Assembly: GCF_003334815.1 (NCBI RefSeq)
Contig: NZ_QOWO01000099.1
Strand: one strand, 5' to 3'
Source of the DNA: Escherichia coli
Lineage (GTDB): Bacteria; Pseudomonadota; Gammaproteobacteria; Enterobacterales; Enterobacteriaceae
Length of the DNA: 1,342 nt
A model generated the notes under the pieces. That model saw only the letters and a program-made list of their open reading frames with translations, ran no database searches and was not told the origin of the DNA. A program made the translations under genes and the position numbers. Of the stretch, positions 1 through 1,169 are shown piece by piece (positions within the stretch are counted from its first letter, which is position 1; each line of letters begins with the position of its first letter).

Positions 1-24
1 CCATAAGCGCTAACTTAAGGGTTG
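1..24. repeat. Left terminal inverted repeat (IRL) of IS186
   Basis: Seen in sequence: 1-24 CCATAAGCGCTAACTTAAGGGTTG is the exact reverse complement of 1318-1341 (CAACCCTTAAGTTAGCGCTTATGG), 24/24 matches. Complementarity ends at the next inward base. Confidence 0.92.
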
Positions 25-50
25 TGGTATTACGCCTGATATGATTTAAC
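22..50 (+). promoter_or_regulatory. Candidate weak sigma70-like promoter for the transposase, partly overlapping IRL
   Basis: Seen in sequence: TTGTGG (22-27; 3/6 to TTGACA), a 17-bp spacer, then TTTAAC (45-50; 4/6 to TATAAT). An alternative -10-like TATGAT (40-45; 5/6) has no well-spaced -35. Both are weak matches. Inference only: IS transposase promoters commonly overlap the terminal repeat and are weak. The implied transcript start would be very close to the start codon, and no convincing Shine-Dalgarno precedes GTG 51 or ATG 57. Confidence 0.25.
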
Positions 51-56
51 GTGCCG

Positions 57-1169
57 ATGAATTACTCTCACGATAACTGGTCAGCAATTCTGGCCCATAT
101 TGGTAAGCCCGAAGAACTGGATACTTCGGCACGTAATGCCGGGGCTCTAACCCGCCGCCGCGAAATTCGTGATGCTGCAACTCTGCTACGTCTGGGGCTG
201 GCTTACGGCCCCGGGGGGATGTCATTACGTGAAGTCACTGCATGGGCTCAGCTCCATGACGTTGCAACATTATCTGACGTGGCTCTCCTGAAGCGGCTGC
301 GGAATGCCGCCGACTGGTTTGGCATACTTGCCGCACAAACACTTGCTGTACGCGCCGCAGTTACGGGTTGTACAAGCGGAAAGAGATTGCGTCTTGTCGA
401 TGGAACAGCAATCAGTGCGCCCGGGGGCGGCAGCGCTGAATGGCGACTACATATGGGATATGATCCTCATACCTGTCAGTTCACTGATTTTGAGCTAACC
501 GACAGCAGAGACGCTGAACGGCTGGACCGATTTGCGCAAACGGCAGACGAGATACGCATTGCTGACCGGGGATTCGGTTCGCGTCCCGAATGTATCCGCT
601 CACTTGCTTTTGGAGAAGCTGATTATATCGTCCGGGTTCACTGGCGAGGATTGCGCTGGTTAACTGCAGAAGGAATGCGCTTTGACATGATGGGTTTTCT
701 GCGCGGGCTGGATTGCGGTAAGAACGGTGAAACCACTGTAATGATAGGCAATTCAGGTAATAAAAAAGCCGGAGCTCCCTTTCCGGCACGTCTCATTGCC
801 GTATCACTTCCTCCCGAAAAAGCATTAATCAGTAAAACCCGACTGCTCAGCGAGAATCGTCGAAAAGGACGAGTAGTTCAGGCGGAAACGCTGGAAGCAG
901 CGGGCCATGTGCTATTGCTAACATCATTACCGGAAGATGAATATTCAGCAGAGCAAGTGGCTGATTGTTACCGTCTGCGATGGCAAATTGAACTGGCTTT
1001 TAAGCGGCTCAAAAGTTTGCTGCACCTGGATGCTTTGCGTGCAAAGGAACCTGAACTCGCGAAAGCGTGGATATTTGCTAATCTACTCGCCGCATTTTTA
1101 ATTGACGACATAATCCAGCCATCGCTGGATTTCCCCCCCAGAAGTGCCGGATCCGAAAAGAAGAACTAA
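57..1169 (+). CDS. insL: IS186 transposase InsL (IS4-family DDE transposase), 370 aa
   Basis: Seen in sequence: uninterrupted ORF from ATG at 57 to TAA at 1167-1169; the ORF track opens 6 nt upstream at GTG 51, giving 372 aa. Catalytic residues read directly from codons: D at 399-401 (LVDGT), D at 564-566 (ADRGF, matching the D-x-G-F/Y pattern I recall for IS4-family transposases), E at 990-992 inside CYRLRWQIELAFKRLK, i.e. Y(969-971)-x2-R-x3-E-x6-K(1011-1013). The long spacer (~140 aa) between the second D and the E is typical of the IS4/Tn5 type. From memory: protein begins MNYSHDNWSAILAHIGKPEEL as in annotated E. coli InsL, so ATG 57 is the preferred start. No frameshift or premature stop. 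Confidence 0.88.
   Translation: MNYSHDNWSAILAHIGKPEELDTSARNAGALTRRREIRDAATLLRLGLAYGPGGMSLREVTAWAQLHDVATLSDVALLKRLRNAADWFGILAAQTLAVRAAVTGCTSGKRLRLVDGTAISAPGGGSAEWRLHMGYDPHTCQFTDFELTDSRDAERLDRFAQTADEIRIADRGFGSRPECIRSLAFGEADYIVRVHWRGLRWLTAEGMRFDMMGFLRGLDCGKNGETTVMIGNSGNKKAGAPFPARLIAVSLPPEKALISKTRLLSENRRKGRVVQAETLEAAGHVLLLTSLPEDEYSAEQVADCYRLRWQIELAFKRLKSLLHLDALRAKEPELAKAWIFANLLAAFLIDDIIQPSLDFPPRSAGSEKKN

Follow-up and report, generated by a model that had tools for sequence, protein, structure and literature searches.

IS186 of Escherichia coli: a probably leaderless transposase message and a candidate +1 frameshift in the same element

The 1342-base stretch of Escherichia coli DNA analysed here (the window, taken at its full length) is a complete copy of the insertion sequence IS186, identical at 1342/1342 positions to IS186A of E. 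coli K-12 MG1655 (record positions 15389-16730). It carries a single long open reading frame (ORF), insL, which encodes a DDE transposase and lies between the terminal inverted repeats (Table 1). The subject of this report is how translation of that gene begins, and the evidence given below indicates that the message made from the element's own promoter is probably leaderless. Of 5426 complete E. coli genomes, 2147 have a match with at least 80% coverage of the window; almost all of these matches are at identities of at least 99%, with 100% matches among them. In laboratory evolution of E. coli, IS186 ranks with the most active insertion sequences, the lon promoter hotspot being an example.

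The insL product contains the PF01609 domain over residues 107-348, scores 133 bits against the NCBIfam IS4 model NF033592 (cutoff 115), and includes the segment YRLRWQIELAFKRLK, which agrees with the Y-2-R-3-E-6-K signature of DDE transposases. Reference identity, this signature and the terminal inverted repeats together identify the element as IS186 of the IS4 family. The left terminal inverted repeat (IRL) is kept in relatives as CCCATA(A/G)GCGCTAACTTAAGG. The left flanks of MG1655 IS186A and of relatives L002-L011 read GGGG-N6-7-(C)CC, directly abutting the inverted repeat (IR). These left flanks fit the G-run/C-run target preference of IS186, and the flanking sequences suggest that the relatives share it.

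Two candidate start codons, GTG at 51-53 and ATG at 57-59, had been proposed for insL in the first-pass annotation of this DNA, which left the choice between them ambiguous. Both codons are real and in the same frame, at the positions given, and with the transposase frame closed on its upstream side by TGA 42-44, no other ATG, GTG or TTG can serve as the start. The ambiguity itself disappears, as annotation, conservation and the mapped transcription start site (TSS) all resolve to ATG57. In MG1655 the insL1 coding sequence (CDS; 15445-16557, window 57-1169) is annotated from ATG57, the annotation of strain 300709 likewise begins the transposase there, and the dominant protein cluster, of 3195 member sequences, has the 370-aa form. 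Comparison among relatives carries more weight than annotation. In the DNA of ten close relatives (loci with 88% to 61% protein identity, left ends aligned gap-free), ATG57 is invariant and ungapped in 10/10, and the site corresponding to GTG51 reads GTT (in the 88%-identical relative), AAT, CCC, ATC, AAC, ATT or CTT. A wider sample comprised 80 loci, with one genome per species, and 42 distinct loci among them retain the inverted repeat. All 42 have ATG as the start and variable bases in the six positions before it, and the IR-bearing bacterial relatives with ATG at this fixed position span several phyla. Among the relatives sampled, GTG51 was found only in IS186 and in a near-identical copy from Escherichia albertii.

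The same annotation had seen no recognisable Shine-Dalgarno (SD) sequence before either start, and this was borne out by duplex calculations, in which the 3′ end of 16S rRNA (ACCUCCUUA) was paired with the 20 nt upstream of each codon and compared with controls and shuffled sequences. The upstream bases 36-50 read CTGATATGATTTAAC. The best anti-SD duplex before GTG51 or ATG57 has an energy of +0.6 kcal/mol, i.e., no pairing, against -5.9 kcal/mol for a GGAG control and -12.8 kcal/mol for AAGGAGG. Equal or better pairing was obtained with 93% of the element's 20-nt windows and, since 99.3% of shuffles of the same 20 nt also pair at least as well, the region before both codons is SD-depleted, beyond merely SD-poor. 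The correctly spaced SD zone is SD-free in nearly all relatives as well. Two other sequences near the start were considered and set aside. A conserved GTGAT in the relatives, viewed as an SD placed further upstream, has an aligned spacing to ATG of about 15 nt (by eye), and IS186 reads ATGAT at this point. The mini-ORF ATG41-ATT-TAA49, viewed as a translational coupling device, is not conserved (relatives read GTGATTCAAC) and is probably incidental.

The start of the element's own transcript was located in two published data sets. The Cappable-seq TSS list (PMC4782308; 5′-triphosphate ends enriched, coordinates of U00096.2) has a plus-strand TSS at 15445, which is window position 57, the A of the start codon. 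Its relative read score is 10.0, its enrichment over the non-enriched control is 17.8-fold (log2 4.1), and it is the strongest plus-strand TSS listed inside the element. A second IS186 copy has an entry on its own ATG (607288, score 10.1); because the reads were mapped by Bowtie2 with multi-mappers kept, the two entries are one signal split among identical copies and not replicates. SMRT-Cappable-seq, based on long reads of capped primary transcripts (PMC6131387), lists a b0016-only transcript from 15444, the same base as 15445 because coordinates in that data set are 0-based (compare the pairs 8190/8191, 9276/9277, 12047/12048 and 17453/17454). The transcript therefore has a 5′-triphosphate end on the first base of the start codon, that codon is AUG, and there is neither a 5′ untranslated region (UTR) nor an SD, three features of a leaderless mRNA. 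A TSS at this A makes the transposase mRNA leaderless and leaves GTG51 outside the element's own transcript, upstream of its first base. The leaderless start that had been raised earlier as one possible reading is thus supported, and we consider it probable that the IS186 transposase starts at ATG57 on a leaderless mRNA from the element's own promoter.

GTG51 is accordingly rejected as the start, and a true start at this codon, giving a 372-aa protein (M-P-M-N...), is very improbable. In its favour, no possible start comes earlier once the in-frame stop at 42-44 has been passed, and a mechanical ORF finder begins the ORF there. Against it, the codon is not conserved, being GTT even in the 88%-identical relative, has no SD, lies upstream of the mapped TSS, and is passed over in favour of ATG57 by RefSeq and by the gene callers that produce the large 370-aa cluster.

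A consensus sigma-70 scan of the whole window, on both strands, returned no sites, and two weak configurations can be seen by eye. This agrees with the earlier description of weak promoter hexamers that would put the TSS almost on the start codon, as both configurations predict starts within a few bases of it. The first is TTGTGG (22-27), a 17-bp spacer and TTTAAC (45-50), with TG at 42-43; the second is TGaTATGAT (37-45). When +1 is set at position 57, the first configuration has TTGTGG at -35 to -30, TG at -15/-14 and TTTAAC at -12 to -7, so that TTGTGG would act as the -35 element. Relatives carry -35-like hexamers (TTGACG, TTGACC, TTGACA, TAGACA and TGGACG) whose first base is at -35 or -36, counting the A of ATG as +1. 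The gap from hexamer to TG is 14-15 nt in 21 of the 27 scorable loci, equivalent to a spacer of 17-18 bp to a hexamer at -12.

Conservation upstream of the gene in the 42 IR-bearing relatives peaks at -15 to -11, with the consensus TGATT (0.7-1.5 bits at each position), and the T and G at -15/-14 are conserved at 83% and 81%, respectively. The block TGATTC (TGATT(C/T)), scored with up to one mismatch, begins exactly 15 nt before ATG in 30 of 33 loci, and its distance from the IR varies between 34 and 38 nt. Since the distance to the IR varies and the distance to ATG is fixed, the constraint is on the spacing between block and ATG, not on the distance from the element tip. Judged from the alignments, this family spacing is the geometry that would be expected of a promoter firing on the start codon, and it agrees with the start mapped in E. 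coli. The in-frame TGA at 42-44 is kept family-wide as part of the TGATTC block and would stop ribosomes entering in that frame. A strict -35/-10 scan of 73 relatives gave 5 hits, against 6.7 per shuffled set. An informal comparison by eye of the conserved block with the consensus for integration host factor (IHF), WATCAANNNNTTR, gave no full match.

In a subfamily of about 45% identity (L021, L023, L026, L029, L031, L039, L040, L047, L067 and others), the region between the -35-like hexamer and ATG contains an inverted repeat, GGAATC-N7-GATTCC or GAATCA-N5-TGATTC, located about 12-27 nt before ATG (equivalent to about 30-48 of the window). The conserved block forms the right half of this repeat, and IS186 is without the left half. 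Its sequence and position give the repeat the appearance of an operator or hairpin covering the -10 region. At the other end of IS186, a resemblance to the left-end block TGATTTAAC/TGATTCAAC, in matching orientation, is seen in the segment TGGTTCAAC (1313-1321), which overlaps the right inverted repeat (IRR) at its inner end. This resemblance may be incidental, since the segment is also constrained by a coding frame (…QMVQPLS*, the tail frame described below) and by the IR.

Several points weigh against a leaderless message. The three identical K-12 copies multi-map, so that the two Cappable-seq entries count as one signal, and both TSS data sets come from one laboratory, as independent library types. 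In the published Cappable-seq list, TSSs no more than 5 nt apart were collapsed onto the strongest one, which may hide weaker starts at 52-56. Some other TSS sets are without the window-57 site, and some of them discarded multi-copy reads: Kim 2012 assigned only external TSSs to insL-1 and insL-2, and the supplements of Romero 2014 and Mendoza-Vargas 2009 contain no entry. The hexamer TTTAAC at -12 to -7 lacks A-11 and T-7, the two key -10 bases, and the consensus scan was negative. The best E. coli-type -10 sequence, TATGAT at 40-45, predicts a start 4-6 nt upstream of that observed. Transcripts reading through into IS186A and IS186C could also be translated.

The last two of these points correspond to alternative explanations. 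Were TGaTATGAT (37-45) the promoter actually used in E. coli, transcription would begin at 51-53, giving RNAs with a leader of 4-6 nt or a 5′-terminal GUG51 and hence a nearly leaderless message. TATGAT matches TATAAT at 5/6 positions and has a correctly placed TG at 37-38, the TSS at window position 471 comes 8 nt after another TATGAT, so that this hexamer is probably used in E. coli, and the merging of neighbouring TSSs leaves room for such starts. However, the cluster maximum is at 57 in two libraries, and a start at G51, being 6 nt away, would appear as a separate entry; none is listed, and a G51 start is not supported. TATGAT and its TG are conserved only among the nearest relatives, in contrast to the more widely conserved 42-48, and a -35 element at 22-27 would be just 12 bp from TATGAT. 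We regard this explanation as decidedly unlikely.

Read-in from neighbouring genes is the basis of the main rival, in which initiation would be SD-independent on read-through RNA. SMRT-Cappable-seq lists read-through transcripts b0014|b0015|b0016 (dnaK-dnaJ-insL1), b0015|b0016 (dnaJ-insL1) and b2393|b2394 (nupC-insL3), so that read-in from dnaK/dnaJ and from nupC enters two of the three K-12 copies (IS186A and IS186C). The possibilities raised at the outset against a leaderless start thus had mixed outcomes: no upstream TSS with an SD was seen, and transcripts from outside do enter two of the three copies. Under this rival, transposase would come mainly from read-in transcripts, with internal, SD-free initiation at AUG57 (or GUG51) in an A/U-rich, weakly structured region (37-75). 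The transcripts listed for insL1 and insL3 are in its favour, as is the lack in SMRT-Cappable-seq of any element-internal TSS listed for insL2 (b0582) or insL3 (b2394), and the AUG surroundings have no significant structure in the read-through context (z = 0.5). Against it, internal initiation on read-through RNA would have no SD to rely on, and the element has a 5′-triphosphate start of its own exactly on AUG57. Promoters outside the element, being variable, do not account for a constant distance from promoter to ATG or for an ATG that is the same in several phyla, and ribosomes arriving in the frame of the conserved TGA 42-44 would be halted there. On balance this rival is unlikely, and a leaderless message from the element's own promoter remains the preferred explanation.

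Other possible controls of the start region were examined and not retained. RNA structure sequestering the start was rejected, as neither the leaderless RNA (z = -0.15) nor read-through RNA from position 1 (z = +0.5) is unusually structured, and the latter shows no fold-back. Control by Dam methylation was likewise rejected, the only GATC sites being at 462 and 1150, with none near the promoter. No antisense or leader family of Rfam matched at E ≤ 1, and the consensus scan showed no promoter-like site on the minus strand, hence no detectable antisense promoter.

The following sequence of events is proposed. RNA polymerase would bind a weak promoter between the inner end of IRL and position 50, made up of the -35-like TTGTGG and the TG-containing block TGATTTAAC, and initiate on A57, with GTG51 being part of the promoter discriminator. 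The transcript would begin 5′-pppAUGAAU..., and its first 14 nt are predicted to be unpaired in both the minimum free energy (MFE) and centroid structures. The leaderless mRNAs of lambda cI and Tn1721 tetR are translated by direct binding of ribosome and initiator tRNA at the 5′ AUG, a process that is inefficient in E. coli, and non-AUG codons work poorly at a 5′ end. By analogy with cI and tetR, we infer that ribosomes carrying initiator tRNA bind the 5′-terminal AUG of the IS186 message directly. A weak promoter combined with inefficient leaderless initiation would keep transposase scarce, and it is plausible that the leaderless design has this effect. Read-in transcripts would hold AUG57 internally without an SD, and hence be poorly translated, so that expression would hinge on the promoter within the element. 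Low initiation efficiency and insulation from read-in transcription are, by the same analogy, the expected properties of such a start.

A conserved C-terminal tail of 63 aa, encoded in the +1 frame, is missing from the annotated 370-aa transposase. In IS186 this frame is open over 1114-1332, its stop TAG (1330-1332) being inside IRR. In three relatives, gene callers place an ORF of 46 aa behind the transposase gene, conservation of the tail begins upstream of the Met at 1192 (...PPE...SLWRITK...), and L009, L028 and L030 have no start codon in the tail frame. Values of pN/pS in the tail frame are 0.14-0.69 vs about 0.9-6 in the other frames, showing purifying selection in the tail frame only, and the dN/dS of the tail against the 88% relative is 0.08. 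The transposase frame ends in a C-run followed by TGA (CCC_TGA) in 11 of 66 distinct loci, and in 11/11 of these a +1 shift at CCC_TGA continues with Glu and the conserved tail. CCC_TGA is a shift-prone pattern for +1 movement in E. coli. IS186 itself has a run of seven C residues followed by the rare codon AGA.

An in-silico +1 fusion of the two IS186 segments gives a protein of 424 aa, colinear over residues 7-418 with unsplit homologs of 425-482 aa (E 1e-57 to 1e-69). The tail segment is, then, protein-coding and, in several relatives, without its own start, and its fusion to the transposase restores colinearity with the unsplit homologs. The tail motif was searched by tblastn and by profile search, the latter giving 471 protein clusters. 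Among the best 150 of these, 125 are small split-off ORFs of at most 130 aa and 7 are unsplit proteins longer than 340 aa. A predicted model of the fused protein has a pLDDT of 80.5, forms the tail as two helices and matches Tn5 transposase over its whole length; a sequence search of the PDB with the fused protein gave no meaningful hit. A programmed +1 frameshift at the C-run probably makes the full-length transposase, of which the 370-aa form would be a truncated version, and no prior description of an IS186 frameshift was found in literature searches.

Cappable-seq lists further sense TSSs inside the element on the plus strand, at window positions 471, 1091 and 1110, and a minor one at 75. 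Downstream of the TSS at 471, the next in-frame ATG is at 675 (residue 207), and an N-terminally truncated transposase made from this start is conceivable on the sequence (compare Tn5 Inh). The TSSs at 1091 and 1110 are upstream of the C-run and tail region.

A broader proposal is made more tentatively, and we put its chances below even: that the whole IS186-like family has an obligatorily leaderless transposase message, which would be a device for insulation and portability and, together with the candidate +1 frameshift, would form a two-step throttle. If so, own-promoter transcripts alone would be translated and host read-in transcripts would be silent. No SD pairing would be needed, so one expression signal could serve many hosts, and the architecture is present in several bacterial phyla. 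A throttle combining a leaderless start with a +1 frameshift would be one not described for the IS4 family. More distant relatives of the transposase (31-33% identity) occur in methanogenic archaea (Methanoculleus, Methanomicrobiales and Methanoregula; L071, L079, L082 and L090). The bacterial upstream architecture (IR core and TGATTC block) is absent in L079, L082 and L090, the three with enough upstream sequence.

The element, the annotated start and the TSS, as an entry in public tables, are already known. In literature searches, no account was found of a leaderless IS186 transposase message or of how the transposase is expressed, nor of family-wide conservation of a leaderless arrangement. 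Very few E. coli mRNAs are listed as leaderless; a leaderless insL message would bring a transposase into their number, and suggests a simple way for an element to ignore transcription from the genes it lands in. This is relevant to the engineering of IS-free or IS-quiet strains, and to the reading of stress conditions reported to favour leaderless translation.

Table 1. Positions of features in the 1342-base window.
Feature	Position	Strand	Remarks
Left terminal inverted repeat (IRL)	1-24	+	Perfect 24-bp inverted match to 1318-1341; inner end overlaps the -35-like hexamer
-35-like hexamer TTGTGG	22-27	+	3/6 match to TTGACA; -35 to -30 from the mapped TSS
Alternative extended -10-like sequence TGaTATGAT	37-45	+	Would place the start near 51-53; conservation confined to the closest relatives
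Three-codon mini-ORF ATG-ATT-TAA	41-49	+	7 nt before ATG57; only in IS186 and closest relatives
Conserved block TGATTTAAC, candidate TG-extended -10 region	42-50	+	-15 to -7; family consensus TGATTC
GTG51, rejected start	51-53	+	In the promoter discriminator region, upstream of the TSS; not conserved
Own-promoter TSS, on the A of ATG57	57	+	Cappable-seq and SMRT-Cappable-seq
insL transposase ORF, annotated 370 aa	57-1169	+	Start ATG57; RefSeq CDS in MG1655 and strain 300709
G-poor, unstructured coding start	60-95	+	G fraction 0.17; follows the 5′-terminal AUG
Tail region	C7 run 1133-1139; AGA 1140-1142; +1 frame 1141-1332	+	63-aa tail

Five leaderless E. coli mRNAs have been listed (dicA, pgpA, racR, rhlB and ymfK; PMC4681348), and insL is absent from this list, probably because multi-copy reads were discarded. 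The authors of the Cappable-seq study count 82 leaderless TSSs (0.4%) in E. coli, which are unnamed (PMC4782308). IS186 resembles lambda cI (transcribed from PRM), Tn1721 tetR, dicA, racR and ymfK in having its TSS on the A of AUG, with no 5′ UTR or SD, and it shares with the leaderless regulators of mobile elements both its setting, a mobile-element gene, and a product needed only at a low level. It differs from them in two respects: cI, tetR, dicA, racR and ymfK encode repressors, whereas the IS186 message encodes the transposase itself, and the IS186 arrangement, unlike these repressor cases, is conserved across a whole IS family and several bacterial phyla.

As a promoter, the region upstream of ATG57 is like the extended -10 (TGn) sigma-70 promoters in its TG at -15/-14, its weak -35 and its 17-bp spacer to TTGTGG. 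It is unlike them in the -12 to -7 element (TTTAAC; TTCANN in relatives), where A-11 and T-7 of a -10 hexamer are missing, so that the region is at most a candidate member of this class.

The closest comparison among transposable elements is with IS10 and IS50 (of Tn10 and Tn5), which belong to the same transposase superfamily; IS186 matches the IS4 NCBIfam model, and the best structural match of the modelled protein is Tn5 transposase (1MUH, E 1e-8). In all of them a weak promoter sits beside an inverted repeat, transposase is produced in very small amounts, and transcription entering from outside has to be ignored. IS10 and IS50 use an SD-dependent start and are controlled by Dam methylation of a promoter GATC, by an antisense RNA (IS10) and by a fold-back structure in read-through RNA. 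IS186 differs in having no promoter GATC, no detectable antisense promoter, no known RNA family and no fold-back, and from its sequence these control devices appear not to be present. The leaderless design of IS186 may do the same job as the IS10 and IS50 devices by another route.

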